A stretch of DNA of 64,000 nt, taken from assembly GCA_011364905.1 (NCBI GenBank), contig RDNZ01000008.1, positions 16,923-80,922 of the forward strand, read 5' to 3'. The notes beneath the pieces are model-generated. The model was given only the letters and a program-made list of their open reading frames with translations, did not search any database and was not told the origin of the DNA. Positions 2,679 to 32,290 of this stretch are shown here, piece by piece (the stretch's first letter is position 1; every line of letters starts with the position of its first letter). Origin of the DNA: Candidatus Thorarchaeota archaeon. Lineage in GTDB: Archaea > Asgardarchaeota > Thorarchaeia > Thorarchaeales > Thorarchaeaceae. A program made the translations under genes and the position numbers.

Positions 2679-5600
2679 TCATTTCTTAGCATCAAGATCC
2701 GCGTCGATACTTTTCAGGAGTTCATCAATTAGGGCACTAGGAAGATTCTTCGCTTGTTTCAGAATTGATGCGATTTCCTCTTGTGGTAAACCTCTTTGTT
2801 CAAGTTGTTCACGGAGATTTTCAATCTCAAGATCGCTCAATCGGTCCTCGAACTCCACCTCTTTAATTGGCACTTCAAGCTCTGTGTCTTCGATCGATTC
2901 GAGAAACGCCTGAATCTTCTCTCTCGGAGCTGTTTTTGCTTCCTCAATTATGGCGTCAATTTCCTGTTTCGGAACTTTCTTCCGGACCAATTCGGCGCGT
3001 AGGTCCTCTCGTTCCTTGTCTGATAACGTATCGACTTTCTTTCTGGGTTTTTTCTTGGTTTTTGTTTCTGGCTTTTTGAAGAACTCAAGAGCAAGTTCTC
3101 TTGGCAGCTCTCTGGCCTGCTCCATAATCGAATCTATTTCACGTTCACTTGCCTTTCGCTTGATCAACTCAGAACGAAGATCCTCTAACTCCTTTTCAGA
3201 TAGATGTTCTACTTCTCCTTCTTCTATTTCTGGTTTCTTCCTAGGTGTGAAACCTTCCAGCAGCATCTGAACTACATCCTTCGGTAGATCTCTGGCTTGA
3301 GTGACGAATGACTCGATCTCATGAGATGGAATGCCACGTTTCTCTAGCTGCTCTGCCATTTCTGCTAATTCTATTTCACGTAGTCGATGTTCAAAATCGA
3401 GACCAGTTTCCTCCTCTTCTGAGACCTCTGTATCTTCTTCGAGATCTTCATAGAGATCTGGTTTGGCTACGGTTGCAGCTCCCCCAATCCTCTTTCTTCT
3501 TTCTTCCACGACCTCGTCCATGACCTGCTCTACAGACTTGTTTTGAACCCCTGCAACCCTAATTGCCTCTTGCCCAATTACCTCTCTCACAAAGCTAGTT
3601 TGTTGACTCATTTTCATCTTTGCAATCTCAAACTTGAAGTCGTCAAGCTCTTGTTGAGTCATTCCAGTGAGAATTGCAAGGTCAATAATCAGTTCATCTA
3701 TTTCGGGGACTTCTATAATGATGGACTCTGCTGGTAGTTGAGAAGCTTTTCTCTTTATTCCAATTGGCTCATTCAATTCATTGAATAGTTCTGCAACGAT
3801 GGCTTGTCTTGACCGCATACCCTTCGCTGGTTTTGGCACCTTATTCCTGCGTAGTCGTCGGACCTGACCACTGATTATTCTAATTATCTTCGGCACCCTC
3901 AAAATCCTTACCCACAGGACACCGAAAAGAATCATGAAGATGATAAATGCACCACCAACTGTCATTACGAACCGTTGCGTAAGTTGTTCACTTGATGGGC
4001 TGACAGAGATCGAAAGCGCCACGTCATCAGCAACATAGTATGTCTTGTTGAAGTGAATTGTCACATCTGCAACACCAGTTCTATCCGTTGCTGTGACACG
4101 GAACAGATAGTAACCCTGGCGACTTTCATCCGGACCAAGATACTCGACCTTGGCAAATAGGGGTCCTTTATTATCTATAGTAATCATGGCCTCAGTAATG
4201 CCCTCTGAAGGATGTCCTGGCCACGCGTCTGAATAATAGATCGAGAAAGTAGTGTTCATTCCCCAATGAAGCGATATCACTTCTGGTCCCATGACCTCAA
4301 GATTCGTTTGAATCTCGATGATTTGAATATCGAAGTCAAATACTGCTGTAGTACGGTTTTCGAGAGCGAGTTGAATGTGAAACGATATCGTTAGATCCAA
4401 ATCCCAGTCAAGTGTGTTAAAGACAAATGTGTAATTACCAAATCCTTGATCGGATAAAGTGAGTGGTTCTTCATAGACACCCCTTCCACTATAGAACGAA
4501 CCATTGAAGATTCCATCAGGAATTCCCATTGCAGCGTAGGTGTCATTGTACAATAGTGTGATAGTTAGTATGTCTCCATATGGGACTTGTAGATGTGCCC
4601 ATGAGTCTCCGATTTGATATAATTCTGGTAGAAGAATTGAGATGTCAGTGGGGACTGGGGCAATATGAATTCTAATCGTTGTTTCCACATTATCATAGTT
4701 TGCCTTTCGGAATTCCATCGCAATGGTGTATGTACCTGGTCTCAATGTTGCTGTATCTATTGGGATGCCATAGACTCCTTCGCCAAGATAGGATGCACTG
4801 CCAACTCCTCCTGCCCAGGAGAACGTGAATGTATCTGCCTCCATGCCCTGGGCATGATAACTATCATAGTATGTAACATTGACCAGCCCTGCCCATCCCC
4901 AATCAAATTCACCGGTTCCCGGTTGTATAATAATTGCCTCTAGATTCTTCACGAATATTGATGTGGAATTGTCTGCTCTCTCATAATCATCACTTGGTGC
5001 ATTAGCAGAAATGATGAAGGTGTGCAGTCCAGTAATGTCTATGCTCGTATTGAAGTCATAGTAATAATATCCTGGTCCTCCTATTGATGCCCCATTCGTG
5101 AGTGTCCCATTTTTGGCGAGTTCTGGCGAGTTCCATGTCACAAAAAGCCCATCCAAACCTGTAGAAAATGGATATGACGCGTTAAGGGCTGGAGCAAGAA
5201 CATATACTCCAATTCTGACGACATCAGACCAATTGATAGGGTTGGATTCGTAAGCTGCAGTGATATTGTCGAACCAAACGACCATCTGAATCTTTGATAT
5301 CGCCATAATCAGCGTTGTCGATGCATCCGCGTAGTTTTGTTTTCCAGCATTCACATGAATCTGGTAACTTCCGAAACCAGCAGATCCAGTTGATATAAGA
5401 AATCTGTAGTATCCTGGTCTGCTTGGTATTTCTGTCAATGTGAGGTTGCCCTCATAATCCCACCACGCTGATACATATGCTTCAGTCACAAGACTGTCAT
5501 CAAGAGAGTCTCCAATATACACAATTACTTCTTCAGCATCTCCCTGGGAAACTGTGAAGACATAATTATTACCTTCTGGAATGACTTCCATGGGTCTTGG

Positions 5601-8600: not shown

Positions 8601-11600
8601 GATTGAATACTCTCCTTTCCTGTTGACACTGTCTATCTCCCAAATGTCCACTATGGATAAATCAACGGAAGCGCCGACAAACTCAACATTGATGAAGACG
8701 TTGGATGTGTCATTCGTAATTCCACCTGTAGATGGGCTAGAATACAGGAATGTATAGACCATATAATCAAGGCAAGGAGAGGGAAGAGCAGCTTCAATCA
8801 ATGTTAGTTCAGTATCTGCTCCCAAAATTTCAACTACAATGGACAGGTATCTGTTCTCATACTTCTGAATACTTCCAGTCCAGTTGAAATAGACTCTAAG
8901 TTGTTGAATCCCAATGCCTCCAAACTGTGAGGCTGCAATCGATATAGTGTAATATCCATCGCCCCTGATTGAGTCATTACCCCAATTAACCACCAACTGG
9001 TGAGTTGTATTCCAGACTGTGCATAGGACATCAGAAGAGGCAATTCCTTGTAAATGATCGCGATCACCATAGTAGACAGAAACATTGATTGTCCCATCCG
9101 AAGTCGTGTCCTCCACTGGTGACAAAAGTCGTAATTCTGTTGTTATTGTTCGAACGACGACCGTGACATTGAATGTAGCTGCTTCATATTCTGGCCCAGC
9201 TGCGAAGTCAAAGACTAGAAGATAAGATGTCAATGCATCGCTGTCATAGGTATGAATTGTGATACTATATCGATTAGCCACCCAAACGATGTCAAAATGA
9301 GCCGGTGTCCAACTGCAGTTGTGATTCAGAGTGAAGATTGGTAGGTTATGATCCATATCAGTATAATCGACATAGAAAGTTCGAGAGTCACCCACAGGTA
9401 TTTCCAGCGCACTAATAGTAGCAGTGGCATAAGTTCTAATTTGTCGTATCTGAATGTCAATAGATATGGTCTTGTTCTCATAGGTTAATGCAGAAGCCTC
9501 AAAAGTCACACTATATGTTCCAATACCCCAAGAGGACGTGTTGAGCGTTACCCGATATCTTCCACTACTTATCAGTTGTTGACCGAGAATATCTGCTCCT
9601 GTCACATAAACAGTTGCTGTGTCAATTCCAATGCCTCTATCCAAATCAACAAACTCCAAGGTGACAATCGCATTTGTACTGTAGGATATTGTAAGAAGGG
9701 GATAATCTGGAGAAGTCAAATCACTTTGAGCTTGCGTGAATTGAAAACTAATGATAGGCGTTTGTGTGTTGGAGTAGTTCTCTGATATTCCAAAGACTAG
9801 GAAAACCCGTATACCATAGGCGCCTCCCGCGAAATATAAGTGATCGAGAGTTAATACGTAAGTTCCTGAAGGTTGAGCTGAGAATGTTTTGATGGTGTAG
9901 ACAGTCCCATTCTTATCCCTGATGATGAAGTGACTCTGTAAAAGACCATTCACGGGTGTATCGTCATATATTGAACTTGAGTCATTTACAGTCACATGAG
10001 TCGTTATCTCGAAGTCATCTCCGATTGGAAAAACATCAATGTCATCCCAAGAGAGGACAACGGCTAGCTTCTGGATCCTCAACAGTATCGACGTCGTCCC
10101 ATCATAGAAGTACCTCGGAGAAGTTGTAGCGAGGATTGTAATGTCAATTACATAGGTGCCTAATGTCCAATCCTGAGAGTCGATGAGGACCTGAAGTGAA
10201 CCAAAAGATGCAGACCCACCAGCCCACTCAGCCAAAACGCTAGACAGATTTCCTGATATTGCGGCATTTCCAGCGTCACGGTCTAGTAATTGAAGAGTGA
10301 CGGTGGCATTGGACCCCATGGATATAGTGCCATCATAGGAAGCCACTACGGTTGTCCTATGCGGTCTTACAGTTACTGCCACTGTGATTTGGGCTGGTTG
10401 ATAATTAGTCCCATCGATTGTGAAATTGAACAAATAAACTCCAACGTCATAGGAATCAACTTCGATTTGGACCGAGTATCTCCCATCAAGAAGGTCTGCG
10501 TATTGGAACACTCCATCACCAAGTAGTGTTCCTCCAATTATCCCCGCATCACTGTGATCAGTATCCAGCCAATTGAGTGTGATACTCGCATTACGTCCCC
10601 AAGGTACGCTGACTGGATTTACCTCGATCTGAACGAGGTCTGTCTTTATCTCCCTATAGCGGAATACAACATCAACTGAACTTCCTATCACAAAGCTTTG
10701 AGCTGGAACTGCATTTATTGTATAGCAATGTGTTCCGAAGCTCGAGCCTGTTGAAACCAGGCTGACAAGATACGTACCGTTGTTATAGTCTGTAACACCA
10801 TTAATCGTACCATTTGATGTGAAAGATGCCCCATCGTAACCCGCTCTGGTAATTGCATCTTCAAGCTCCACTTTGACACTAAAGTCATCACCATAGGGCG
10901 TTGAGGGGGGTGTCTTGAAAGATAGAATAGTGTTGCGTGAAAGTTCCAAATCAAAGAAAGTTGTTGCATCTATCAGGTACTGATGGCTCGAAACGATATT
11001 GATTCTCCAATTTCCAGGTTGATTGAGGTCCGAGGTGTTGAGAGTCTTCCCATAGATGCCGTTACCATAGTCTTCCAATTGAATCTGTGTTTCGGCTCCC
11101 GAGATACTCCAGTTCATTGCAACTTTAGAGCCCGCCACATCTTGGGAAGTTTCAGTATTTGTCAGTTGAACTTCGACTTTGAGAAGATCTCCTGCAGTCC
11201 GTACTGCCACACCATCTCCAACTGCGTCTGTGGGTGATAATAGACTAAGTGACGATGCATGTTTGACGGTGAACAATCTGCTATACCTTCCAACGCGTTC
11301 TGGACTTGAATCAGCTGTGTTATTGAAATCGACATGAACCTCCCAGAGCCCATTTGGCCATGCACTTGTCACACTTATTCCAGTCCATTCAAACTGACCA
11401 CTTCCATCCTGAGTAAGATCATCTGTGCTGTAAAAGAGCTGACCACTTGAATCAATCAAAGAAAGCCGCATTGCGGACCCAGGAATCATCGTAGCAGTTC
11501 CTCGGAATTTTGCAGAGTCTCCAATTTGCAGTGCTACAGAGTTTCCATATGCCCCCGCATTCGCGCCACACTCAAGATTTGTGATCTCATTGGAGGATGA

Positions 11601-14600
11601 GAACATAAATGTCCAAACTCCGTACACGTCAAGCACTGAAGAGGGCACCATGACCTGTAAGCTTGTAGCAGTGACGTAGAAGAGTCTGTCCTGACCGAGT
11701 GAATCGGTCACACTTGAAAGAGTCCAATCTGAAGGTTTCATAAGTGTGAAATTCAGTGTACTCACACCTGGCGGGGGGCTAACTAAGACATTAGCTGTCC
11801 ATGATGCATCAGTGTCATTATTCACACTGAACGAAGAACCATATTCAAAGTTTGCATCGAGAGTTGAGTCAGAATGAGTCACATTGATTTTTAGTCTTGG
11901 AAGAATCTCAACAACTGAGTCTGAACTCGTGGCAAAGAGCAGTTTTGCCTTTTCTCCGAACTGCGTTGTCTGCTCAATACCTTTAGTCAGGAATCCTGAA
12001 GGATCATATTGGTTTGCATATTCTGTCTGAATCCAACCAGCCGATTTGTAACCATTGATTACTCTAAACTCATCAATGCCTCCTCGAAACGGAGTGCCTC
12101 CTCCTATTGTACCAATGACGAACATATTGCTATCGCTACGCAAAGAACCTCCAGTTCCCAAGGTGTTATCATTAAACGAGTCCAAAAGCACACCATCTAC
12201 AAAGCTATAGCCCCGGTACCGCCCATCCCCGCTGCTCTCATATTTAAAGACCACATAGTTCCAAGCTTGTCTCTTGACGAGCACACCTTGGAAAGCATCG
12301 TAGCCGTTGAAATGAACATCAACTTGGAAATTGGCATATCCAGGGACTCCAACATCGAATGTACGCGCCAGACTCATAGAAGTACCCTTATCGAATACTC
12401 TCCATTCGTTTGACCAGAACTCGGTATCAGTGGAGAAATTAAAGTAGATCCAGAATGAGAATTGCCAATCAGACCAGCCATCAAAGATGCTCTGACCGTC
12501 AACAAAGGAAATGTAGTTGCTCCCTACATTCTCGCTGTATCTGGCACCATCAATCATCCCGTTCGGCATATAGCTCGTTAAAGTTGGTTCTCCGCCGTGA
12601 CCATTGATGCTTGAATCCATCAAGTACGCTGCAGTGCCTGACTGTTCAGAGAGATGCCAGATACTTTCGTATCCTTGCCAAATATTGGCTGAATTCTCTA
12701 TTCTTTGAGGTTCAGGTGTTCCATATTGCATGCTGATTACGGTGTCCTCAGTTGCAGACAAATAGGGGACTTGAACCCACGCAATCAGGTGCGCGTGTGT
12801 ACCATTGTAATTCGGGTCAAATACTTCGACTTGATAGTCCAATGTTTCTGAGCCTGATACAAATCTAATGTCATCACCATCTGATCGAGCATGGCTTTTA
12901 AGATCGGCATCAAGAATGTCGACAAGAACAGGGAAGTTTTCAAGGTCCGCGCTGACCTTTGTATGGTCTATTGTCAGTTCTTTACTGTACTGTTGTACTG
13001 ATATTGTGTCTTCTTCCTGAGGTATCATAAAGTCAACATAGAGTCTTGCGAGGTTTCCTCCTCCATATGACCAAGTTCCCTTTATCGTGTTGTAGTCGCG
13101 ATAGTTATCTGAGAACATGTAGCCAATCATTAAACCAATGTAGTTGCCACTAGACCATCCCGAACGGGAAACCACTGCTTGGACAAGTGATGAAATGTCC
13201 GGTGACGCATATCGATAGTCAGCCGTCCAGTAATTTGGTGCCCAGTCAATGCTGTTCTCAATCCAGGGATACTGAACCTCCAAAGGATTAGCGCCAGTGG
13301 CAAATGGTGCCATATTGTCAGCTGCAGCCACCCATACTTTGAACGTGTTGTCATCCCCATCCGAACTATACTCACCTAGAGCCTCAATTTCCAATCTCGC
13401 AGATGTAATTACAGCTCCTCTTGGGATGTTTAATGGAAACTGCATTCCAGTTTGATACTTAATCACATCAGTCCAAGCTGTGCCACTTGAACTGTAGACT
13501 CCCACCTCTGGAGTTCCTGTAACACTTATTCCGGTATCAGAGCGACTGACACAGTCTCTGTTTGCCCCATCTGGTACAAAGGGCATGGTACTATCTGACA
13601 CGGTCCCTGTGATCACAGTCTGATTGGCATGAAGACCAACTTGTTCTGGGAAAGGCCTTACTGTGAATGTGGCCTCTATCTCATCTATATACACGAAGTT
13701 ATTAATATTGGATGGAGGTTGACCCGAAAAGTCTGTACTCAGACCAATTGACAATGGAACAGATCCCGGTACTGGAATACTTGAGAATACCGAGGCCGGT
13801 ACATCAACAAATCCCTGCAGCCACGTGTCGGTGGTATAGCCTGTATCAAATACGCCAAACCTGGCCTCATAGTTTCCGACCCTCACAAACAGATAAAACA
13901 TGCCATTCAATGTCTGACCACTTGGTACTCTATGATAGAATGATAGTCTGCAGGAGTACACCTCTCTCCATGGCAACTGGACCTGCTGACTTAGATATAT
14001 CTCCATGTTGGGATTAAGAGTCTTGGTTGTGTCAAATAGAACACTGGGTCTCCACCCCATAGAGCTCTCTCTCCCGGCTCCTGCTGATGTGTACCAATAG
14101 AGCCCTCCATGCCTAGGATGCGTTGTCGAGTCACCCTTTTTCACAAGTGACCAGCCATCAGGCAGATAGAATGTTTCTGAGTTCCATGTTGAGCCTGTTA
14201 TAATGTAACGTTCTGTATGGTAGTCATCAAGAAGTCCATTTGTCAATTGGGAAATTCGCGTAGAAATGTGCTCCATTGTTCCACTTAGAGCATTTGCAGT
14301 CCAGCCTTGAGGTGTGGCGATGGGAACTGATGCTGGCGTTGATGAGTCGAGCATGACAATAGGCTGTGTGGCATTAGAGAAGACGCCGCTAAAATTGATT
14401 GGTTGTGCTGCTCCTGTTGAACTATACTCTTGAGAACCCTCGGAAGGCTCAAACCAGTAAGGCGAGTTTTTGTTAATGACCTTTCCACTGGTCAAATCAG
14501 ACTGATTTGGAGTGAAACCTGCTGGAGAGCAAAACATTAGCAGGATGATACATGGGATTATGGCTCTGGAACACACTAGCTTCCATATCTTAGCGCGTTT

Positions 14601-14624
14601 CTTAGGGGAAGTACCTACTATCAT
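2679..14624 (-). CDS. Giant single-pass cell-surface protein A (3981 aa): signal/anchor, N-terminal beta domains, one DUF2341+LamG module, long Ig-like stalk, TM helix, about 410-aa cytoplasmic tail
   Basis: Uninterrupted 11.9 kb ORF; IDHTKVSADLENFPVLVDI...WHLSE...IDEFRV...WIQTEYANQ; repeated YGxNxT/GxYxI beta units; many NxS/T sequons; TM FVMTVGGAFIIFMILFGVLWV; SD GGAGGTGA at 14631-14638. Confidence 0.9.
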   Translation of the reverse strand: MIVGTSPKKRAKIWKLVCSRAIIPCIILLMFCSPAGFTPNQSDLTSGKVINKNSPYWFEPSEGSQEYSSTGAAQPINFSGVFSNATQPIVMLDSSTPASVPIATPQGWTANALSGTMEHISTRISQLTNGLLDDYHTERYIITGSTWNSETFYLPDGWSLVKKGDSTTHPRHGGLYWYTSAGAGRESSMGWRPSVLFDTTKTLNPNMEIYLSQQVQLPWREVYSCRLSFYHRVPSGQTLNGMFYLFVRVGNYEARFGVFDTGYTTDTWLQGFVDVPASVFSSIPVPGSVPLSIGLSTDFSGQPPSNINNFVYIDEIEATFTVRPFPEQVGLHANQTVITGTVSDSTMPFVPDGANRDCVSRSDTGISVTGTPEVGVYSSSGTAWTDVIKYQTGMQFPLNIPRGAVITSARLEIEALGEYSSDGDDNTFKVWVAAADNMAPFATGANPLEVQYPWIENSIDWAPNYWTADYRYASPDISSLVQAVVSRSGWSSGNYIGLMIGYMFSDNYRDYNTIKGTWSYGGGNLARLYVDFMIPQEEDTISVQQYSKELTIDHTKVSADLENFPVLVDILDADLKSHARSDGDDIRFVSGSETLDYQVEVFDPNYNGTHAHLIAWVQVPYLSATEDTVISMQYGTPEPQRIENSANIWQGYESIWHLSEQSGTAAYLMDSSINGHGGEPTLTSYMPNGMIDGARYSENVGSNYISFVDGQSIFDGWSDWQFSFWIYFNFSTDTEFWSNEWRVFDKGTSMSLARTFDVGVPGYANFQVDVHFNGYDAFQGVLVKRQAWNYVVFKYESSGDGRYRGYSFVDGVLLDSFNDNTLGTGGSLRSDSNMFVIGTIGGGTPFRGGIDEFRVINGYKSAGWIQTEYANQYDPSGFLTKGIEQTTQFGEKAKLLFATSSDSVVEILPRLKINVTHSDSTLDANFEYGSSFSVNNDTDASWTANVLVSPPPGVSTLNFTLMKPSDWTLSSVTDSLGQDRLFYVTATSLQVMVPSSVLDVYGVWTFMFSSSNEITNLECGANAGAYGNSVALQIGDSAKFRGTATMIPGSAMRLSLIDSSGQLFYSTDDLTQDGSGQFEWTGISVTSAWPNGLWEVHVDFNNTADSSPERVGRYSRLFTVKHASSLSLLSPTDAVGDGVAVRTAGDLLKVEVQLTNTETSQDVAGSKVAMNWSISGAETQIQLEDYGNGIYGKTLNTSDLNQPGNWRINIVSSHQYLIDATTFFDLELSRNTILSFKTPPSTPYGDDFSVKVELEDAITRAGYDGASFTSNGTINGVTDYNNGTYLVSLVSTGSSFGTHCYTINAVPAQSFVIGSSVDVVFRYREIKTDLVQIEVNPVSVPWGRNASITLNWLDTDHSDAGIIGGTLLGDGVFQYADLLDGRYSVQIEVDSYDVGVYLFNFTIDGTNYQPAQITVAVTVRPHRTTVVASYDGTISMGSNATVTLQLLDRDAGNAAISGNLSSVLAEWAGGSASFGSLQVLIDSQDWTLGTYVIDITILATTSPRYFYDGTTSILLRIQKLAVVLSWDDIDVFPIGDDFEITTHVTVNDSSSIYDDTPVNGLLQSHFIIRDKNGTVYTIKTFSAQPSGTYVLTLDHLYFAGGAYGIRVFLVFGISENYSNTQTPIISFQFTQAQSDLTSPDYPLLTISYSTNAIVTLEFVDLDRGIGIDTATVYVTGADILGQQLISSGRYRVTLNTSSWGIGTYSVTFEASALTYENKTISIDIQIRQIRTYATATISALEIPVGDSRTFYVDYTDMDHNLPIFTLNHNCSWTPAHFDIVWVANRYSITIHTYDSDALTSYLLVFDFAAGPEYEAATFNVTVVVRTITTELRLLSPVEDTTSDGTINVSVYYGDRDHLQGIASSDVLCTVWNTTHQLVVNWGNDSIRGDGYYTISIAASQFGGIGIQQLRVYFNWTGSIQKYENRYLSIVVEILGADTELTLIEAALPSPCLDYMVYTFLYSSPSTGGITNDTSNVFINVEFVGASVDLSIVDIWEIDSVNRKGEYSIGFNNSIVGGTGIFSMRVFINWSAGVVPFYTNRTDLISVRVLPRTASLSVIPPTNVPFGENATFSFTYEDTTGGLSSPIDYNPAVMTISLNVPDFTLTYSSLEGLYEVSFNTSQLGAPLGARTLVLNLAWSGLPFYSNVTGRNIGITIVERQTILTYPTPPATPYGNNVSFTVSYTDIAGSTSKAVLNTTIEVYVGVDLIPSNYIQVTDLGSGEYRVDLNTSYFSQPGLYSLRVEASSEQFYYQSRSGTKSLTVSPRSTLLTAEPVASVPYENSFSIVLHYQDLDTFLPIGNDTGIIVALEILNGTDWLFTCSWRPSHQNYLLTVETYNQPLELGRTYHLWLNFSSEFAAPFYDWNDILVPFEMKERDTSLDLISSPSQTLYQDYANFTILYKDASTSLGISGGTIYLHYGVVLLEPSIDYIINENSPGQYLISIDTSVLGIPGVKTIQVTANWSAGSPYYNEALRAINIPVTERPSNVEIVFPPGQTWYLDNVTLDFTFVDISTGARVLVSLNDITIFSGGILLASGEYVVQPIGSIFRLQINSTVIAANLVSSWNITIQVGWTGGAPYYKDDAVSIFVNTVGRVGTVELSQIEETPIGDLMSINLIYTDLRKRNGIEGATIVLDCVEVPGLAEGLDYWVQMGTGIDSGKYEILISTSSLGSIGVFTFSIEVQWSALVSPFYVNISSPEVHGVVRAIQTSVSSGLPSPSVVAFYEDVSFVIQFNDTDHAVPINGAEGQIIVRYEPSGLEPSSWTVQALGGGQYNIILSMMDSISAGLKTVNVTIAMSQYQTAQTAVVFGLRNRVAGLSADVAPANYAGYATSVMIYLVDSDDNDSPLAGATLDLTWSDSNSYDDLGNGSYNLTLQTVNLNYGSQILTVGANLLHYSINTLKVDINLLAVPSNLIIAWSGPRSTNEVYWGEPLTIFASLNDTLRNQTVSLATITFDWDGGVGPFIPSGVPGNYTAILDTSSGTVSDTIIVVIKGSAPNYIDATEQLVFRLLPRPMEVIPEGNNYVFTVSQGDAEEVIVYIGDSLDDSLVTEAYVSAWWDYEGNLTLTEIPSRPGYYRFLISTGSAGFGSYQIHVNAGKQNYADASTTLIMAISKIQMVVWFDNITAAYESNPINWSDVVRIGVYVLAPALNASYPFSTGLDGLFVTWNSPELAKNGTLTNGASIGGPGYYYYDFNTSIDITGLHTFIISANAPSDDYERADNSTSIFVKNLEAIIIQPGTGEFDWGWAGLVNVTYYDSYHAQGMEADTFTFSWAGGVGSASYLGEGVYGIPIDTATLRPGTYTIAMEFRKANYDNVETTIRIHIAPVPTDISILLPELYQIGDSWAHLQVPYGDILTITLLYNDTYAAMGIPDGIFNGSFYSGRGVYEEPLTLSDQGFGNYTFVFNTLDWDLDLTISFHIQLALENRTTAVFDFDIQIIEIQTNLEVMGPEVISLHWGMNTTFSIYYSDAWPGHPSEGITEAMITIDNKGPLFAKVEYLGPDESRQGYYLFRVTATDRTGVADVTIHFNKTYYVADDVALSISVSPSSEQLTQRFVMTVGGAFIIFMILFGVLWVRILRVPKIIRIISGQVRRLRRNKVPKPAKGMRSRQAIVAELFNELNEPIGIKRKASQLPAESIIIEVPEIDELIIDLAILTGMTQQELDDFKFEIAKMKMSQQTSFVREVIGQEAIRVAGVQNKSVEQVMDEVVEERRKRIGGAATVAKPDLYEDLEEDTEVSEEEETGLDFEHRLREIELAEMAEQLEKRGIPSHEIESFVTQARDLPKDVVQMLLEGFTPRKKPEIEEGEVEHLSEKELEDLRSELIKRKASEREIDSIMEQARELPRELALEFFKKPETKTKKKPRKKVDTLSDKEREDLRAELVRKKVPKQEIDAIIEEAKTAPREKIQAFLESIEDTELEVPIKEVEFEDRLSDLEIENLREQLEQRGLPQEEIASILKQAKNLPSALIDELLKSIDADLDAKK
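2705..3383 (-). repeat. Four copies of an about 45-aa three-helix repeat in the cytoplasmic tail of protein A
   Basis: LREIELAEMAEQLEKRGIPSHEIESFVTQARDLP; LSEKELEDLRSELIKRKASEREIDSIMEQARELP; LSDKEREDLRAELVRKKVPKQEIDAIIEEAKTAP; LSDLEIENLREQLEQRGLPQEEIASILKQAKNLP. Confidence 0.85.
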
Positions 14625-17600: not shown

Positions 17601-20600
17601 GAAACCAGTTCATTCAGCTCTCCCTGCCGGAGTCTGATCTGAAATGGCACCTGCACTTGGACTGTCTGATAATCTGGTAACGCCAAGGTTATAATGAGTG
17701 CGTTGGTTACTGTTGTACCTGCATCATAACAATCCACGGTCAAATTGTATATTCCTGGTGATATCGGAGTTATGCTCCATATGTAAGGCCCAGAAGCATT
17801 CGTCTTATATTCCACCGAGAATAGGCTCTCGGCTCCACTAATAGGAACGAAATGGTCCAAATCTTGGAGATTCAAAATCACAGAAACATTGTCGTTTATC
17901 GGAACAGTGGATGGAACAGGTTCTTCATTTGTGAGCTGCAACTGTATTAGTCTGACAGACCCTTGGAGGAATATTGTTGTGGTGTTTCTGTAGTAAGGCG
18001 CAACTGTAGGATTCCAAAGCAAACGTAGAGAGAAGGTGAATGTGCCTATACTGCCAAGACTTGTGGTGTCAACAAAAATTGAATAATCGCCAGAATTCCG
18101 ATAAATCCAGAAATCTGTTCCTTCTGCAAGGCCACTTGGACTTAGACAGTCGAAAACTACAATTGCATCATTGATTCCTGCACCATTTGAATCATCAACA
18201 TAAGTGAAGTTGAGTGTCATATTATCATATATTGGGACAGTTGGTGTTGCTCCACGGATAACGATTCCGATTCTGTTTGCCACTGTTACCCATGAGGATG
18301 CACGTCCATCTGCATAATATGGTGCAACAGTGTTATGCCAATCTATGTAGAAGGTTATGTTCTGATTGTCAATTAATCCTGCAGCTAATACTGATGAGTT
18401 GATAGAGATCTCATAGCCAGATCCGAGATATACCATAGCGAAATCATTGCTTGATAGCAAGGTTCCCTCATTGTATATTAACAACTGATCCTTGCTAAAC
18501 TGGATTGCTTTACCTGATGTTTCATCACTATATCTAATGGTAAAAGTGACATTCTCTAAGAACTTGACTTGTGTTGTTGATGATACTATCTCAGTGATTG
18601 AGTTTCTCTCTGTTACAGTAAGTGTGAGGCTCAGAGTCGAAGTTGAATAATATGGTTCGTTATCAATCCACGATGCTCCTAGTTCAAGATTAACTGATGA
18701 TCCAGCTGGTCCCAGTACTGTAGTGTTGATTGAAATGTAATAGCTACCATCAAATGGACTAAGAAGTGAATAGTCTATACCTTCTACCAGGTTCGTTCCG
18801 CCAACTGCAAGAGTAATTGTGGCTCCAGCGATTCCGGCAGAGGACGATGAGTCTTGATAATACACAGCGAAGTCTACACTGTCCAAGTACTGAGTAGGTT
18901 CCGGAGATTCTGTGACCTCCAAGATGGTTGCTCGCTCCTGAAGAGTAAATGAAACAAAAGCTTCGGCCGAAAGATAGAATGGCGATGAATCCGGATAGCT
19001 AACCTGTATCCAAAGAACATACTCCTTGTTTATCTCAAGATTTTGATTATGAGTATCAATTGTGAGAAGATAGTCCTCTGGAGCCCCTCTCCAAACTGAA
19101 ACAAAGAACCATGAACTTCCATTTAGAATCCAAACTGTTGTCGGTGTTGAACTGTTGCCAATTTCAGATAGAGTCAACACATCACTGTAATGAAACACTA
19201 CCTGAAGGGAGTTGTTATATGCTGTTTCCTCAACGGGCTCTATGAGAAGGACTGTTAGTCTATATCGCAGACTAAGTGTTCGTGATGCAGTAACTATGTC
19301 ATAGTAGAAATGACTTGTACTCATCGCTACTGTGATTGTGTAAGTGCCTGGCTTCGTAAAGTAGGTCGTCTTGAGTTCAACGTCATACTCTCCATTGCCA
19401 AGTGGCATGAATGAGTATTCAGTCACAGGAATTGCTCCCGACCCATTGTACAAAGTAATGAAACCATCATCAATGGTTTGTGACTGCCCCGGCGTGATGT
19501 CATTGAATGTTAAATGTAGGGTTACATTATCGCCATACGCCGTGGGACTAATTGTTGAATAATCGAACTCTGTTTCACGGTATCTGACGCTAATGATGAC
19601 ATTTCTCCCTGTCAAATTAGCATAGAATGGCGCTCCAATCCAACTGACTCCTATTGTGAACTGACGCGTTCCGAGGGGGGCTCCCAGAATGCTAGTGTTG
19701 AATGAAACATGAAACTGTCTTGCAGATGTGTTGTAGGTGAGAGAGTAATCTGCCAGTCCAATAGTGACTCTCATCTGAGAACTGTTAGCAATACTATATG
19801 AGCCGCTTCCTGCAATATCATCAAATGAGAATGAAAATGTAGCATTGACTCCATAAGGAGTGCTTTCAGGTGGGACCAAATTAATCAAAGTGCTCCTCGG
19901 TATGACTCGAACTGACACCGTATCTGTCCAGTTACCATAGAATGGCTCCTGAGTTTCGGTCCAGTTCACATGTACAACCATTGTATACACTCCTGGTTCA
20001 GCAAAAATTGTGCTGTTGAACTCAATTGTATAGTGTCCTAGATTTCCGGAATCTTCTTTGATTGAAAACAAGGAAGGACTGAAAGACTGGCTAACAAACT
20101 CTACATAGATGAATACATTTCCTGCTGGCGCTGATACATTGGAAATGCCATTGCCACTGTATAGCTCACTATAGAAATAGGTGTAACTCAGATTCTCTAG
20201 ATATGGCGTTGGCTCAGCTGATACAATCAGTTCAAGATCAGATGCCTCGCCTACGATTCTAACAGAAGAAACTACGGAATTATCATAGAACTTCGGAACA
20301 GGCCCTGTCCAATTGAAATATACAGTGATATCATAAATTCCAGAGGTACCTAAGTTCGTGGCTGCAAAGCTGATTATGTAATACCCATTTCCCAAAGTTG
20401 TGTCATTCTTGAAGGTAGATGAAATCCATCCCGAATCCCCATATACAGACAAGTTGACAGGAGCGTCAATTATTCCTAAATCGTTGTCCAAGTCACCACA
20501 ATAGACGGAAATATTGACCATTGCATTGTAGCTTGTTGGTTCGGTAGCACTTGCGAGTCTGAACTCGGTTAGGTGTGTCCTTAGAATGATGCTTATGTTG

Positions 20601-23600
20601 ATGTACCCAAATTGATAGTTGGGTCCTTTTGAAAAGTTTAGCACTACCAAGTAAGTGCCAAGACTATCTGTATCTATGCTAGGTAGCTCTATTCTATACT
20701 GGTCGCCAGTCCAACTAATACTCAATGGATAGGTCCAGTTATGATTCAGAGTCGCCCCGATTATCGCTTCATTATGTGTGATGTCCCAGTAGTCTGCGTA
20801 GAAGACAGCAGTGTCTCCCAAAGGCAAATCGATGATAGAAACAGAAGACCTTGCATATGCATATGCAATCTGCACAAGGATTTGGAACGTGAGTGTTTTT
20901 GCTTGATATCCACTTGCATCTGCAGTAATATTCACCTCGTGGGCACCAAGGTCCCATCCTTGTACGATAATCAAAACCTCGTAAGTTCCACTTCCAATGT
21001 GCTGCCATTCAATCAAAGCACCTTCCGAAGTCATGATACCCGTCGTAATGTTCTGAACATGATCAATATCAACATAGGATAGTGTGATTGTAACATTCGT
21101 ATCAAAACTAGTTGTTACACTTGGGTAATTTGAAGACGACAAGTAAGTAAGAATCGGGCGGTATGTGAATGAAACTTGAGTAGTACTACTGTCTGTGTAA
21201 TTCTCTGTGGGCTGAAAGTCCACAAAGACAATGATTTCATACTGCCCTTCTAGGAACCTTGTGTTGTCAATCGTTATTTGATATCTCCCATCTCCAAGGT
21301 TCAAGAAACTCTCAAAGGTGTAAAGTCCACCTGTTTCGTTGCGAGCGCTGAAGTAGGTCTGATCAAGTCCAGCAATTGCTGTCCCGTCAATCGGACTATC
21401 CGGTTCGCTTACATTCACATGAACAAACATTACGAAGTCATTGCCATTTGGAAATGGTTCGAGAGGCTCCCAACTCACATACACACCCAGTTTTCGAATC
21501 TCAAGATGGATTATGATATACGAGTCCATATAGAATCTCGGGGATGCCGTGGCACTTATCGTCGCATTGATGGAGTACGACCCCGCTGCCCAACCACTGG
21601 TATCCACCCAAAAGCCTAGCACAGAATGACTGTCACTTCCAGTTCCCCAATCCAAGCTTACTTGGGTCAGATTGCTAGGACTTACAGGAACTGAATCAAG
21701 ATCTAGATCCATCCACAAGACATCAAAGTAGACATCAGTACCAACAGGTATGGTGGAGTTATAGTTCACGCTTGGCGTTGTTCTGTGTGGAAGAATCAAG
21801 ATGCTTATTGTGGTCGTTGATGATTGGTAATTTTGCTTTGAGCATGTTAGGTCGAAGTAGTAAGTTCCAGGCATAAATGAACTCACGTCGATTGTGATGA
21901 GATAATTGCCAATGCTGGTTTCATCTACCTGTATCGGAACAATTGGAGAAATTGAGATTGTGCTACTATCTACTCCAATTCCTGCGTGGTCGATATCAAA
22001 CCAGTATATACTTGTGTTCACTTGTTGCCCCCATGGAGCCTCAACTGCATCAGGACTGAGTGGAATAGTTTCAGTTGCAATAGGCCTATAATTGAATTGA
22101 ACATCTATACTGCTACTCAATAGATACGTAGTACTTGGGGTTGCTATGAACCTAAATGTGTGCTCCCCACTTGAGAACCCTGTACTATCCACTGTCACAA
22201 GGTATGTCCCATTTCCATAATCTGTAGGTATTCCTAAAATTGTCGCATTACAGGAGAGGGTTGCACCTGTCAATGGCGTGCTATCGAATTTGTCCCTCAA
22301 TGTCAACCTAATCTCAAAATTGTCGCCATATGGTGTATCATTTGGAGGTTCATATGTCATGAATGTTCTGTGCGAGAGGTCTAAATAGAGGAAATCCGTT
22401 GCATCGCTATAGAATGAGTGTGATGCTTGAACATCTAACCTCCAACGGCCATAGCCGCCTAAATCGGACGTATTCAGTGTCTTGCCATATCTTCCGTCTC
22501 CATAATCATTGAGCTGAACATCCGTGGGTGTACCACTGACGCTCCAATTCATTGATACCGTTGCACCACTCACCATTGTTGAGGTCAATGTATCTTGCAG
22601 ATCAAACTCAACATAGAGCTGCTCGCCGATGAGCTTGGTTGAAATTCCATCAAGTATAGCGTCTCCTGGTGCAGTGAGGCTTAAAGAAGTTCCACGTTTC
22701 ACAATGAAAGTCCTATCAAATATACCTGTTCTGAGGTTTACGTCAGAATTGCTATCACTATACCTCGTGGTAGCATGCCAAACTCCTGCAGGAGCAGAGG
22801 TGTCCAAGTTGATGGACGCTGACTCTGAATATCCTATGTTTTCCTCCAATCCTATCGAATAGAAGTTGCTTGGATTGTACTGATTGCTGAACTGCGTTTG
22901 AATCCATCCTGCTGAACGTGTGACATCCGAAACACGCACCTCGTCGATTTGGCCATCCCACTCTGCGCTCCAGGTCTTGTTCTGAGGTTGGTCACCTTGT
23001 CCAATCCAGAAGTCCTTCTCAAATGAAGAGGGTTCAATCGCATTCGTTTTTGTTAGAACATTTGGATCCTGAACTCCATCCACATAGATTCTCATCAACG
23101 AACCATCGTAGGTTGCCACAATCTGATGCCAAGAACCTCCAGTGACATCATTGGCTCCGACAAGCTGATGAGTATCGCCGGGTAGGCTGAAGGTTGGTTT
23201 GATGGTTGAGCCTCCGCCATAATTGATGTACAAGGCATATCCATCATACCAGCCTTTGTGGTTCATTATGCCATAGACATGAGTATTAGGAGTGATGTCA
23301 TGCTGAATCCACGCTTCAAGTGTTATCTGATATCCATCAATATCCCAAAGAGGACTGTCTCCACAGTCTATGAAATCGTAATAACCATCAAGATTATTGA
23401 ATTCCTGACCAGCGCCAATCTTTCCGACTGTTTGAGTCGGAACAAACAAGCTATCCCCATCCCCACCTTGACCATCGTTCTTGTATTGGCTACTGTCTCG
23501 ATACTCACCCAGTAGTCCCGTTCCACTTTCAGAGAGGTGCCAAACCCCCAGATATCCTGAATCCCAAACAGGTCCCGAATCGTACACTATTGGGGCTAAT

Positions 23601-26600
23601 GGGTTTCCATAATACATGCTAATTACGGTGTCTGTTGAACCAGACAGTACTGGCACATTTACCCAAGCCACGAGATGAGCATGAGTCAGGTTGTAGGTTT
23701 GGTCGAAAAGTTCTATCTCATGCGAGAGTGTTTTTTCGCCAATTGTGAAGGCAATGTCCCTACCGTCGGCGCGCACATCTGTTCTTAGATCCGTATCGTA
23801 TATGTCTACTAGCACGGGGAAGTTGACAAGGTTTTCCATGACGTTATCATGACTGATTGCCAAGTATTTTCTATGGTAGTACGGAAGGGTAAACCCAGCT
23901 CCCTGAAATGTTGTACTTCCCGCATACCATGTAGAGCCTGTTGGGTCCGTCAGCTCTAGAGAAATCGTAGAACCAATGGTTCCAGAACTCCAAACATGGA
24001 ATTGGATATTCTCGCCAACTGCAAACTGCCCTGTGGTGGAATAGGGCCCTCCACTGGGTCCAATTTGCATGTCAAGAACATGATTTCTATCTAGGAATTT
24101 AATCTTCCACATACCATATTCATCAATCGCAGTTGAGCCAACTATCAGTTTACCATCGAAACATGTCCAATCGGCTGCAAATGTTCTCTCGACCCCTGAG
24201 GGACTTGCAACAGAAAATGGCCACCACTCACCCTCTGGGTATGAAATCTCAAAAGAAACCGCTTCTAATTCAGGAGGCGGAGAAATCATCACATTCGCGG
24301 TCCAAATCGGCAGACTACCATTAACGATGGAAAATGATGTGCCTTGAGTAAAGTCATCAGCATAACTGAGTATCGAAGTCTGTACTCCAAGCGACAGTTC
24401 AGTTCCAACTGTGATGCTAGATTCAGAACTTGTTGTGAAGATGTATCCATTGCCACTCACCTGTTCCTCTGACTCGATGGAGTAGAAGGAACTAGGATTG
24501 TATTGATTATTGTACTCTGTCAATATCCAACCAGAAGACCGAATAGCAGGTGAAACTTGAATTTCATCGAATCTCCCTAGAAAACGACTGGCTGAATCAA
24601 GTTGATTCCCTCCCCATAGCCAATCACCAAGACTTGCTAGTTGGGTCCATTGTGTTGGCACATTTTCTATGGCTAGAATCAATTGTGTGCCATCCAAGTA
24701 AATCTCAACAGTTTTCGTAGAATAGTCAAGTGTGACAACGAGATGATGCCACACATTGTTTGTAAATGGATTGGTTACAAGATTATAATCGATGTCGTTT
24801 CCGCCCCAGGGGTAGAAGAAGTTGTCACCATCAGGTTGTACCGCCCATTCAAAGCCATCGTCTTGGATGAGGGTGGGCGGAGGAGATGGGTTCAGTATGA
24901 ATCGGTCGCTTGTCGTCATAATACGCTGATATCCCCCATCGGAAGAATTCACCCAGTTAATCCAGATTGAAAGAGTTCCCCCAGATTTAATGGAGTCTAA
25001 GCTGGAGCTTTCAGAAACATTGATCATGTCATCAATGCCATCCAACTCAAATCCACTGCCTATTTGACCTTGGACTAAATCTGAACCGCTCATAGATCCT
25101 AAGGTCGCCCCATCATTATTGTAATGAGTACTGTCAAGCACTGTTCCTGCTGGACTTTGGTCTAGATGCCATACGCCAACATAACTTCCCCATACTGCAC
25201 TCGGATTTTCTTGATTCGTCAGATCTGGGTTGCCATAATACATGGTGATTGTTGTATCGATTGAAGAAGAAAGGTCTGTCTTGACCCAAGCAATAAGATG
25301 GGCATGCGTGCCATTATATGTTTGGTCGAAGTACACGATTTCGTGTGGGCACCAAGTATATCCATTCTTGAACATGATGTCATCTCCATCAGCCTGTACA
25401 TCGGTTCTTAGATCTGTGTCAAAGATGTCAATGAGCATAGGAAAATCAGTCAGGTCTTCTGCAACCATTGCGTGATCAACAATCAAATTCTTCCTATACT
25501 TGAACTCCGCAGTATTAACATTAGGCTGATGTTCCGCCTGGGATGTCTTTTCCGGTCCAATAGTGTAGAAACTTGATGGACTATATTGGTTACTATATTC
25601 AGTCGCAATCCATTCAGGTGAAAGCGCAGTATTTGCAACACGCACTTCATCTGTGTTTGCAGTGGACCAATAGCCAAGAGTACCACCTATCTCACTGCGG
25701 AATGCGTTTATGTAGAAGGATTCCACCTCGTCAAGACTGCCATAACCTGTAATATCAATTGGAGAATTCGGATCCTCTGCTCCATCAATGTATAGTCGAA
25801 GATAGTTCCCATCTCTTATCATAGAAACAAGGTGCCACAAATTGTCCCCGTAGGTTGATGTCGAGTAGATGTTCTTCGCTACAGTATTGTCGTCAATCGC
25901 TGCCATCAACATTCCTGGACCTGATTCTATGCTAATTCGATATCTCTTAGCCATAAGTACAGCACCTTTTCCGGCAAGGGTTCCCATGTTCACACCATCA
26001 TAATTGAACCACAGTGAAAATGAGAAGTCATTAGAACCCACATTTAACGAAGTATCATTCCCACAGTTAATGTAGTCCTGTGTATTGTCGAAATCAATGC
26101 TCCCATCAATCTGTCCTTCTACCTGATCGTCTGATTGAAGATTGTATCCTGTGCCATCATTCGAATTACTTGTCGAATCATAAAGCGGTCCGGTCGGATT
26201 TTCACTAAGATGCCAGACCCCTCTGTAATTAGAGTCCCATACACCTGCGACGTTCTCTTGGTTCCCAACGACAGAGTTACCGTAATACATTGTGATTACT
26301 GTATCAACTGATGATGAAAGGTCAGTCTTAACCCAAGCTACCAGATGTGCATGGGTGTCATTATAGGACTGCTCGAAGGACTCTATCTCATGAGGAAGGA
26401 TAATTTCACCAGATTTGAATATGATATCATCACCGTCAGACTGCGCTTTCGTTCTTAGGTCAGCATCAAAGATATCTATGAGCAATGGAAAGTCATTTAG
26501 ATCTGTGCCAACCTTTGTATGATCAATGGCTATGTCCTTCTCGTAGTTGTATTGGGTGGCTTGATTGATTTCTATCCCAAGTGATGTTGTGGGTTCAGGA

Positions 26601-29600
26601 CTAACGTATGGCCTTAGAAACACGTCATCCGCATAGACAGTATTGGGTTCCGTCTGAGGACTTGCCCAATAGAACACAGTACAGAACCTGTTGACACCCT
26701 CTGAGCCTAGATTTATTCCTGTTTCTTCGACTTCAAGGTTTCCATCAACCCACAGTCTTGCTTCTCCATCCGTGGTCGAGAATTTAGCTTGTATTTCTAG
26801 CATGTGCCAAGAACCCTTGGAAATTGGACTCGTAGTCCCGTAACCATATGCTTCACTCGCAATAGCGTTCCACAGGTACAGGGACATATCGCTGTATATG
26901 GTCAGGCTTAGCTGGTTTACCCAAACTGGGGACGTATCAACGAATTGCATTATTGTGACATGATCAGTAGTCGAAAAAGTCGCAGGGAGATAGAAGTGGA
27001 CTCTAGCAAACAGACTCGTCTTGTCACTGAAATCCTTCCAGATCATTGCCTGAGCTGCGGCCTGATTGTCAACCACTCCTTTTGCTGAATAGGTACCAGT
27101 ATTGGCCTGCTCCGTGGTTACTGACAGCGAGTCTCCAATATCCGTGTATGAGCCATCCCAAGAGTTAAGGTCGCCACTCTCAAACCCATCATAGAATTGG
27201 AAGACGTTGGCGTGGTTGTCTGGTGGTGAAGATACCGATGGATCTCCATAGTATAAATAGTAATTATCATCAGCTGTTGAAGATGGAATGTCAGACTGAA
27301 TCCTGAACCATACCTTTGTGGCTGCAGAGTCCCATGAAGAATCAGAGTCCAATACTCTGTCCAGTTCAATTAGGCTGAAACCATTCCAATACATAATCCG
27401 CATGTCATCACCATCAGCCTGTGATTTTCCTGATGCAACCAATGCTGCGTGATCGAATGTCACCGAAGTGGAGTATCCCGCCGTAACTGGCTCAGAACCA
27501 GTGGTGACAGTGATCTGTCTACTGAATTCGTAGGTTTCTCCAAGCATGGTTTCCTCCTTTACAGTATAGAATGATTCTGGATCATTCTGATTGTTGAACT
27601 CCGTAGTGATCCAGTCTGGGCTTCGATAGGAACTTGAAACTCGCACCTCATCAATGCGACCATCCCATTCCTGTATGAAGCCAGTTGAGCCGGGGTTATT
27701 GCCTATTTGGAGAACTGATGTGCCAGTCTGGGTCGTACCGCTATAGGGTGCACTATTCCGCTCAACTCCATCAACATACAAGAGCAGTTCACTGGTTCCT
27801 GCGTTTGCCACACCGACAACATGATGCCACTTGCCATCATTCACGAGACTGATGGGTGCAGTCACGCTCTGAGTATTGTCGACATAAAATGCGAAGGTCG
27901 AACTATCCAACTTGCCTAACCAATAATTCCGATGACCCACAGCACCCCACTTGGCTACTATCACATCCGAAGTAGGATCTGTATTGTTTGTATGTACCCA
28001 TGCTTCCACCAGCATGTCTGATGATAGAACAAGTGAAGTAGAGTGTGGTGCCTCGATGCGTTCATTGGTTCCTTCTCCATAGAACTCGGAGCATCCGTCG
28101 AATTTTCCTGTTTGAAGAGTGGGTTCAGTACCAATTGGGAGACCCACAGCGTCATTGCTATTTGAGGTACTATCATACACAGTGTCAGCTGGATCCTCGC
28201 TAAGATGCCACACGGCTGCAAAAGAAGTATCCCAGACACCGTGAGGATTCTCTAAACTATTCGAATTGGGATTTCCATAATACATGGATAACACAGTATC
28301 AGAAGATGCAGAGAGATCTGTTCTCACCCAAGCAAGAAGGTGTCCATGTGTGGAATTGTATGACTGCTCGAACAGCTCAATCTCGTGAGGGAGTATCCAT
28401 CCATCTTTTACAAACACAATGTCATCGCCATCAGATTGAACATCGAATCGAAGGTCTGAATCGAAGAGATCAATAAGAACTGGAAATCCATAGAGATCCG
28501 CGGTCACCTTAGTGTGATCGATAACAATGTCTTTCTTGTACATGAAACCAAGAGGTACTTCTTGGGGAACTGTGACTTCTTGCTCAATCCCTATCGAGTA
28601 AAAGCTAGAAGGATTGTTTTGATTGTTGAACTCTGTAAGAATCCATTCTGAAGTGGTCGTAGAGCTGAGAACATGAACTTCATCGATTTTCGCCGATAGA
28701 AACAGATTGGGTGCTCCAGCGTTGTCGTAGTTGTCACACGCCGCAATCAGAAATGGCTCAATGGAATTAATACTTCCATATCCAGTGATGTCAACTGGCG
28801 AGGTCGGTACTTCAGATCCATCAATGTAAAGATGGAGAAGATTTCCTTCTCTCACCATGGCAGCGTAGTGCCAGAGGCCATCATTCAGCGCTGACGCCGA
28901 ATAAATGCTGATTTTTCCAGGTGACGCAGAGTTGTCGTCGATTTCTGCCTTTATTGTTCCTGAACTTGTGACTGACAACATGTATCTGTAGGCATCTGTG
29001 CCGATAGCTCCTTTATTGGCAAGAGGTGCGTCCAGATCGGATGTGGCGAACCACAAGCTCATAACAAAATCATTGTAACCCACTGCAAGCGAGGCTGTAT
29101 CTCCACAGTCTATATAGTCATTTGATCCGTCAAAGTCAATAGCATTGCCTATTAGACCCGGGACTTTGTCTTCTTCGAGCATTGTGCCGTACGTAGTCCC
29201 ATCATTGTTGTTGTATGTACTGTCAATGATTTGTGGGGCTGGCTTGCCAACAGATGGACTTTCTCCGAGGTGCCACACGCCTTGATACTGATTTCGCCAG
29301 ACCTCCTCAGGACTTTCTTTGGCCCCCATGGCAGAATTTGCATAATACATTGAGATTATCGTGTCCGATACAGATGAGATGTCTGCCCGTACCCAGGCGA
29401 CTAAGTGTGCGTGTGTTGAGTTATACTGTTGGTCGAACAGTTCTAACTCATGCGGTAGACTCCTGCCATTTGATGTGAACATTATGTCGTCGCCGTCTGG
29501 TTGGACCTTCGAATGCAGGTCTGAATCATAGATGTCAATCAACACTGGAAATCCCGTGAGGTCGGCTGCAACTTTATTGTGGTCAATTTTGATGTCCTTC

Positions 29601-32290: not shown

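Follow-up and report, generated by a model that had tools for sequence, protein, structure and literature searches.

Tandem pairs of giant genes are known in Asgard archaea from the aloposons of Heimdallarchaeum, in which Otus and Ephialtes are two adjacent, mutually similar genes of 3,000-6,000 amino acids (aa) (Wu et al. 2022, Nat Microbiol, PMC8813620). The same paper mentions, as a gene-map observation (Extended Data Fig. 7), tandem giants with distant homology to these in two Thorarchaeota metagenome-assembled genomes (MAGs); at least in the parts of the paper that concern them, they come without domain anatomy, coupling, repeat matching or a description of the tail. Here we analyse a likewise adjacent and mutually similar pair, genes A and B, on a 64,000-nt stretch (the window) of contig RDNZ01000008.1 (assembly GCA_011364905.1) from a Thorarchaeia MAG of 3.08 Mb in 95 contigs, which is 81% complete. 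We read A and B as co-transcribed, translationally coupled paralogous giants of type-I topology, which most likely serve as long fibres, adhesive or coat-forming, in an envelope lacking an S-layer, probably side by side, and assign this reading a probability of roughly 0.55.

Long Ig-like extenders with ligand-binding modules at the far end are also found in RTX adhesins (Aeromonas, MpIBP/LapA type) and in FdeC/invasin arrays, and both groups are represented among the fold matches of the present analysis (6xi1, an RTX adhesin tetra-repeat; 4e9l, FdeC). These bacterial repeat adhesins leave the cell by type I or type V secretion (T1SS/T5SS), are held in the outer membrane and have no cytoplasmic domain, in all of which A and B differ. 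Moreover, the bacterial repeats are near-identical and variable in number, whereas those of A and B have no BLAST-detectable mutual identity and are fixed in number.

An archaeal envelope made from two co-operonic proteins has a precedent in slaAB of the Sulfolobales, where SlaA and SlaB are not paralogs and SlaB alone is anchored in the membrane. A and B, in contrast, are paralogous, and their conserved cytoplasmic tail has no counterpart in slaAB or in the archaeal giants with LamG domains. Archaeal proteins > 5,000 aa, whose function is unknown, contain Laminin_G_3 more often than any other domain (PMC11573180), and cultured Lokiarchaeia, which have no S-layer, carry unidentified "complex surface proteins" (PMC9834061).

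Cadherins and protocadherins, as well as alpha/beta integrins, share with A and B the type-I topology, a tandem beta-sandwich ectodomain, one transmembrane (TM) helix, a basic juxtamembrane segment and an adaptor-type tail. Integrin chains are also made together, as A and B would be, but the chains of A/B are paralogs and those of integrins are not. In length, the A/B stalk exceeds the eukaryotic ectodomains four- to fivefold, and its best fold matches are Ig domains of the titin type. Pfam searches found no Cadherin family at E <= 0.01 over whole A and B, leaving a fold-level likeness, and no FG-GAP, VWA or integrin-tail families in either protein. As the first-pass annotation of this DNA had assumed, the likeness to integrins and cadherins appears to be one of architecture, with no sign of homology. 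Among giant Ig-repeat surface proteins, A and B stand out as new in three respects: they are anchored as type-I proteins, they carry new conserved modules in the cytoplasm, and they occur as translationally coupled paralog pairs of matched length.

Coupled genes and the architecture of their products

A and B together encode 9,870 aa, close to the ~ 9,900 aa given before, and are collinear paralogs with 36% identity across 2,806 aa, the heads aligning as well. All the features described in the first-pass annotation were found where it had placed them. Orthologs of A in Thorarchaeota MAGs range from 5,176 to 6,569 aa, and orthologs of B from 3,973 to 4,004 aa. The TGA of A and the ATG of B overlap on the coding strand as ATGA at 14621-14624 (TCAT on the plus strand), and GGAGGTGA lies 6 nt 5' of the ATG within the final codons of A, so that the Shine-Dalgarno sequence (SD) of B is encoded by Gly-Gly codons in the C-terminal ..KGGEEE of A. 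An AT-rich stretch and an AGGAG can be seen by eye 5' of A. A single 9,870-aa frameshift fusion is ruled out, as A has its own TM helix and tail at its end and B its own signal peptide at its start.

The stalks make up a large part of both proteins. An iterated hidden Markov model (HMM) resolves exactly 23 repeats of ~ 95-117 aa each in A (aa 3216-5609) and in B (aa 1143-3530), with lengths that match position by position (104, 98, 96, 99, 114... in A vs 102, 98, 93, 97, 114... in B). The repeats become visible only with the iterated HMM, self-BLAST of the stalk having found none. Neither Pfam on the whole proteins (E 0.01) nor NCBIfam on a two-repeat segment yielded a stalk family, and no Ig or Big family is assigned at the sequence level. 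A two-repeat segment modelled with AlphaFold2 (AF2) from 106 repeat pairs folds into two Ig-like beta-sandwiches, with a predicted local distance difference score (pLDDT) of 95.7 and a predicted template modelling score (pTM) of 0.82. Foldseek matches this model with probability 1.00 to titin tandems and also to obscurin, protocadherin, desmocollin and an RTX-adhesin extender. With single domains, VIA gives Z 9-10 over 87-100 aligned residues at 2.3-3.4 A root-mean-square deviation (rmsd), the closest structures again being titin Ig tandems. The modelled fold thus places the stalks among the Ig-like beta-sandwich tandem repeat proteins at fold level.

Sequons for N-glycosylation amount to 2.5-2.8 per 100 aa in the stalks vs ~ 1.1 expected by composition, a 2.4-fold enrichment, and recur at several repeat columns. 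They are depleted in the lectin array of A. The stalks carry 60-67 of them, and the tails of A and B 0 and 1, respectively. Orthologous stalks differ by 8-17 gap positions in ~ 2,390 aa despite ~ 50% identity. An Ig-like, sequon-rich stalk of well over 2,000 aa, as proposed in the first-pass annotation, agrees with these results.

The heads are followed by lectin-like modules of the DUF2341 + LamG type, seven in A and one in B. Those of A span aa 540-900, 895-1249, 1251-1585, ~ 1586-1915, 1916-2251, 2264-2609 and 2806-3165; the module at ~ 1586-1915 is divergent and has a Polysacc_lyase-like match. The last one (aa 2806-3165) sits inside a neck domain, splitting it into aa 2617-2790 and 3149-3222 (window 22796-24442 = aa 2617-3222), whereas the neck of B is uninterrupted (aa 896-1145). 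Membership among DUF2341 + Laminin_G_3 proteins follows from the Pfam gathering scores: in A, Laminin_G_3 (PF13385) reaches E 6e-81 and 270 bits (cut-off 27.6) and DUF2341 (PF10102) E 2e-34 and 118 bits (cut-off 23.4). B has each once, DUF2341 over its cut-off (28.8 bits) and Laminin_G_3 under it (23.2 bits). The modules probably bind glycans, and their copy number in the lectin array changes among orthologs. The heads themselves are 42% identical between A and B; an ESM Atlas language-model search with the head gave CBM96, CBM6 and MAM leads, all sub-threshold (score < 0.9).

Hydropathy reveals just one hydrophobic segment per protein in addition to the signal peptide at the N-terminus, consistent with the single TM helix noted earlier. 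The tails behind it, of 238 aa in A and 403 aa in B, are 39% identical across 259 aa. In the AF2 tail model (mean pLDDT 79.5), the TM helix runs on without a break into a basic juxtamembrane helix; behind this come five more helices, then an acidic linker predicted to be disordered and finally a bundle of three helices. When 28 tails spanning the class (A, B and 26 relatives) were aligned, three conserved blocks stood out: a basic SVPKRLRQI..KGKIPKP segment, a stretch ..MKxSEQxxFxKEVIxQE.. in which M, S, F, EV and QE are invariant, and the terminal ~ 45-aa module LSxxELEELRKxLxxxGVPxHEIDTIxEQAxxLPRxLVEEL. By these sequence features, A and B can be assigned to a Thorarchaeial tail-anchored giant family, defined here by a C-terminal TM helix, basic helix, helical domain and terminal module. 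The K/R-rich stretch after the TM helix and the near absence of sequons in the tails, compared with the stalks, support a location of the tails inside the cell. Predictions of folded, conserved and intracellular tails made before this analysis have thus fared well, with the tails being conserved class-wide, helical in the model and preceded by inside signals.

Searches for relatives of the tail outside this family gave nothing credible in Pfam (E up to 5) or NCBIfam (E up to 1) and no match in the ESM Atlas. The tail model returned generic helical matches from Foldseek-PDB and VIA (Z <= 6), and the alignment profile reached E >= 0.37 at best against PDB sequences. A tail match occurs in just 111 of 1.84 billion representative proteins, nearly all of them C-termini of long or truncated proteins, and in this genome the module is confined to four giants. 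Two proteins join the module to other sequence. P0155 (metagenome, 245 aa) has an undecaprenyl-diphosphate-synthase-like N-terminus and two three-helix modules, and could reflect either a genuine fusion or chimeric assembly; P0161 similarly has a membrane-transporter-like fragment and one such module.

Table 1. Features of the A/B locus, with positions in the window.
Feature	Position	Strand	Description	Basis
Gene A	14621..32290	-	5,889 aa; upstream member, type-i UP clade	Open reading frame (ORF) list and translation
A signal peptide and head	30674..32290	-	Signal peptide aa 1-22; N-terminal head aa 23-539	Hydropathy
A lectin-like modules and neck	22796..30673	-	Seven DUF2341 + LamG-type jelly-roll modules and split neck domain	Pfam; BLAST of B module and neck vs A
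A stalk	15428..22681	-	23 predicted Ig-like beta-sandwich domains, aa 3204-5621	Repeat HMM, AF2, Foldseek and VIA
A TM helix	15341..15403	-	Predicted, aa 5630-5650	Hydropathy 2.39, then K/R-rich stretch; AF2
A tail	14624..15340	-	aa 5651-5889: predicted basic helix, ~ 110-aa helical domain, acidic disordered linker, one C-terminal three-helix module	Alignment, AF2
Coupling junction	14621..14638	-	GGAGGTGA, then AGAGGA, then ATGA stop/start overlap	Direct sequence reading
Gene B	2679..14624	-	3,981 aa; downstream member, type-i DN clade	ORF list and translation
B signal peptide and head	12993..14624	-	Signal peptide/N-terminal region aa 1-39; head aa 40-544	Hydropathy, alignment to A head
B lectin-like module and neck	11235..12992	-	One DUF2341 + LamG module aa 545-900; neck aa 901-1130	Pfam; BLAST
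B stalk	3990..11234	-	23 predicted Ig-like domains, aa 1131-3545	Repeat HMM
B TM helix	3894..3962	-	Predicted, aa 3555-3577	Hydropathy, then K/R-rich stretch
B tail	2682..3893	-	aa 3578-3981: basic helix and helical domain as in A, then four ~ 45-aa three-helix modules	Alignment

Inheritance of the pair and matching repeat numbers

Coupled co-expression had been proposed from the junction of A and B, and the junction is indeed retained: the stop/start overlap and GGAGG are kept in 12/12 loci examined of the type to which A and B belong (type-i). The overlap takes the form ATGA, GTGA or TAG-GTG in each of nine A-type loci, and is also present in two pairs of genome G065 and at locus L016. A second coupled pair resides on contig C15 of the same genome as A and B (L006:8842-16521; L007:518-8212). 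It encodes 2,564 + 2,559 aa with 17 + 17 repeats, has an ATGA overlap after GGAGGG, and carries the same tail with one three-helix module. As a side observation, the upstream partner at coupled junctions (window 14624-14645, L014, L015, L016, L019-L026) ends in ..GKGGE/D.., its Gly-Gly codons forming the GGAGG SD for its downstream partner, whereas family members without coupling mostly have other endings (..SLGEE, ..SLTGDK).

In a maximum-likelihood tree built from the four C-terminal repeats and the tail, the upstream (UP) and downstream (DN) members of type-i pairs fall into two clades, each with support of 100/100, which are sisters at 100/99 and display an identical inner branching order. 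Contig C8 of G065 (L067-L070) harbors two whole type-i pairs 22 kb apart (6,554 + 3,987 and 5,492 + 3,986 aa), each with a 4-nt overlap and each with one member in the UP and one in the DN clade. From the sister clades, their common branching order and the two G065 pairs, we infer that A and B arose by one tandem duplication and that the pair was then inherited, and once re-duplicated, as a unit. Derivation of all coupled pairs from one ancestral alpha/beta pair is ruled out, as A and B are 36% identical compared with ~ 24% between A and either member of the small pair, and the tree indicates separate duplications.

Partners within coupled pairs have equal repeat numbers, 23/23 in the five type-i pairs counted and 17/17 in four of four small pairs, at an A-B divergence of ~ 2.3 substitutions per site. 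Neighbouring type-ii genes, which do not overlap, have 22 vs 21 repeats and gaps of 144-195 nt, and in genome G007 the neighbours differ more (~ 35 vs 21 repeats, 1.7-kb gap). The upstream type-ii genes with 22 repeats cluster with genes that occur singly and have 31 repeats, and the tree distance between them is below that of A and B. Type-ii orthologs span 22 to 31 repeats and uncoupled relatives 21 to ~ 35. These numbers are consistent with a constraint that holds coupled partners at equal length.

Matching lengths might also arise in A and B that are independent, non-touching fibres, in which case the tandem overlap and the equal stalks would reflect a whole-gene duplication kept in an operon for co-regulation, with different lectin sets displayed at different heights. 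Orthologous stalks seldom gain or lose residues, and equal length could be simple inertia; elsewhere in the family, however, repeat number has shifted (21, 22, 31, 33, ~ 35) at divergences below that of A and B. Relatives with single members, including a lone 23-repeat gene, agree with independence, as does another Asgard family, f14, in which three to four members that differ in length (4-14 repeats) lie in tandem and do not overlap. The 4-nt overlap with its embedded SD, on the other hand, is kept in both types of coupled pair and absent from unequal neighbours, and the pair was re-duplicated as a unit. We regard independent fibres as possible but rather unlikely.

The proposed fibre model and its alternatives

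For A and B as paired fibres, the following arrangement can be proposed. The signal peptide would export each protein, with the head and the LamG/DUF2341 modules forming the tip of a rod that has 23 Ig-like domains and many N-glycosylation sequons. A typical Ig domain measures ~ 4 nm, which would give an extended rod of ~ 90 nm. One TM helix would anchor each protein in the single membrane and continue into a basic, membrane-hugging helix. Inside the cell, this would lead to a helical domain of ~ 110 aa, which is new, and from there, along an acidic flexible leash, to the three-helix modules, of which A has one and B four. A and B would be made at a fixed ratio and probably assembled in parallel, and their equal stalks would place the single-lectin head of B level with the base of the seven-lectin array of A, which would project beyond it. 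The shared tails may dock on one common cytoplasmic partner via their flexible leashes. The analysis shows the structure of the genes, their coupling and topology signals, the domain folds, the distribution and the joint inheritance of the pair; that the proteins are displayed on the surface, are glycosylated, bind glycans, associate with each other and dock through their tails is inferred. This scheme fits the S-layer-less, protein-studded envelope of cultured Lokiarchaeia (PMC9834061), and co-assembly of A and B is plausible, while not demanded by the family.

Several observations weigh against this arrangement. The equal repeat numbers trace to two duplication events and therefore represent few independent observations. 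Relatives contain single large genes (G003, 5,049 aa with 31 repeats; G026, 5,021 aa with 31; G001, 4,428 aa with 33), and in many genera one large member is present as a single gene. In the one-contig genome G010 (L076-L079), which is devoid of tandem pairs, the members all stand alone: one gene of 3,995 aa has 23 repeats, and the others have 10, 7 and 3. The ~ 520-aa heads matched no family in Pfam (E up to 5) or NCBIfam (E up to 1), and the gene neighbourhood offers no partner for the tail. Since relatives have single genes, neither a partner paralog nor a heterodimer is required by the family, and a monomeric or homo-oligomeric ancestor is the simplest reading. The 3-repeat gene of G010 (674 aa) retains a full A-like tail.

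The first-pass annotation had suggested for A and B a heterodimeric transmembrane adhesion and sensing receptor, and named single occurrence of the genes in relatives as an argument against it. Inheritance of the pair as a unit and the 23/23 stalks agree with the pair aspect of this proposal; single genes of close family members do occur in G003, G026, G001 and G010, and the argument against it applies in part. The proposal is thus partly supported. In its stronger form, A/B would be a true outside-in signalling or mechanical-linkage receptor of the integrin or cadherin kind, a heterodimer whose tails recruit cytoskeletal or trafficking proteins upon contact with a partner cell. The tails are folded in the model and conserved class-wide, with extreme conservation of the C-terminal module (HEIDTIxEQAxxLPRxLVxEL) and a copy number set per subunit (1 vs 4), but they contain no enzymatic or known adaptor domain, have no fold match, and their module occurs nowhere else in the genome. 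Within this subclade, the pair has Ras/Roc-like and leucine-rich repeat (LRR) genes beside it, a linkage absent from genomes without the pair and from the distant relative L013. In addition, a rod of 23 Ig-like domains would be an unlikely conduit for conformational signals. Such a receptor seems improbable to us. Similarly doubtful, and if anything a little more so, is an obligate, register-matched parallel heterodimer whose one vs four modules recruit Asgard cytoskeletal or trafficking proteins, as a prokaryotic, independently evolved counterpart of the integrin- and cadherin-type links from adhesion to cytoskeleton, serving contact with syntrophic partner cells.

With up to ~ 10,000 codons per pair, the family offers concrete candidates for the Asgard complex surface proteins in Thorarchaeia. 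The tail modules are small and soluble and suited to pull-downs on what links the Asgard interior to the surface, and the coupled pairs of matched length are a clean test case for the co-assembly of paralogous fibres.

Distribution of the family and genomic neighbourhood

With TM helix and tail as the query, matches were obtained in 82/87 Thorarchaeia genomes, including all 24 of high quality. When genomes of >= 80% completeness were scanned across the phylum, 69 of 71 Thorarchaeia gave matches. A family present in all 24 high-quality genomes is more readily understood as a core part of the envelope or of adhesion than as a specialised receptor. Outside the class, one Asgard family (f14) has distant matches in 12/14 genomes, with weak scattered matches elsewhere. 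Homologs of the stalk all carry Thorarchaeota-type MAG names and are annotated solely as hypothetical, DUF2341 or LamG. Among 42 genomes of >= 90% completeness, at least 18 have the two genes of the small pair side by side, and this pair type occurs class-wide. Conservation of the gene pair across Asgard genomes, suggested as a check in the first-pass annotation, thus holds for coupled pairs in the Thorarchaeia loci examined, and gives way to single genes in some genomes and to unequal, non-overlapping arrays in f14.

The f14 loci (L073 = G171:C15; L074 = G169:C2) are tandem arrays of 3-4 homologs of 1,395-2,311 aa with 4-14 repeats, separated by gaps of 166-448 nt and free of overlaps; their TM helix and tail are distantly related to those of the Thorarchaeial family (E down to 1e-12). 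Upstream of the small pair, at a distance of 239 nt and on the same strand, lies an ORF of 747 aa without a Pfam match (L007:8451-10694).

The genes 5' of A are a 210-aa LRR gene, two Ras/Roc-like genes, an alpha/beta hydrolase, the gene for aspartyl-tRNA synthetase (AspRS) and an EAP30/Vps36-family gene, and their order is kept in close relatives. Full-length orthologs of the LRR and Ras-like genes adjoin type-i A genes only; in genomes without the pair, the closest homologs reside on different contigs, and L013 is without them. We take this arrangement as local synteny, confined to the subclade with the pair, and do not count the neighbours as functional partners.

A different origin, as cargo of a mobile element, is brought to mind by the tandem 3,000-6,000-aa genes of Heimdallarchaeal aloposons and the distantly related giants in two Thorarchaeota MAGs that the aloposon paper, in its relevant parts, reports (PMC8813620). 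Hallmarks of aloposons are a tRNA integration site downstream of the giants and four upstream genes including a MinD/ParA-like ATPase. Here, the only tRNA in the window (tRNA-His, 63474-63547) is 31 kb away, and no MinD/ParA gene was found among the neighbours 5' of A, which are those listed above. GC content (44%) and GC at third codon positions (GC3) of the locus are native, and the tree and the presence in every high-quality genome of the class fit vertical descent. With no nearby tRNA, no MinD/ParA gene and no compositional anomaly, the aloposon model does not apply; we consider mobile cargo highly implausible, and by these sequence criteria the pair appears to be chromosomal and vertically inherited. 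Both giant loci of this genome adjoin aminoacyl-tRNA synthetase genes.

Directly 5' of A (window 32446-35958), the LRR gene is on the same strand as A, and the two divergent Ras/Roc-like paralogs (426 and 414 aa) have N-terminal extensions of ~ 210 aa. The EAP30/Vps36-family (ESCRT-II-like) gene at window 38524-39315, 6 kb 5' of A and beside the AspRS gene, is syntenic in close relatives.

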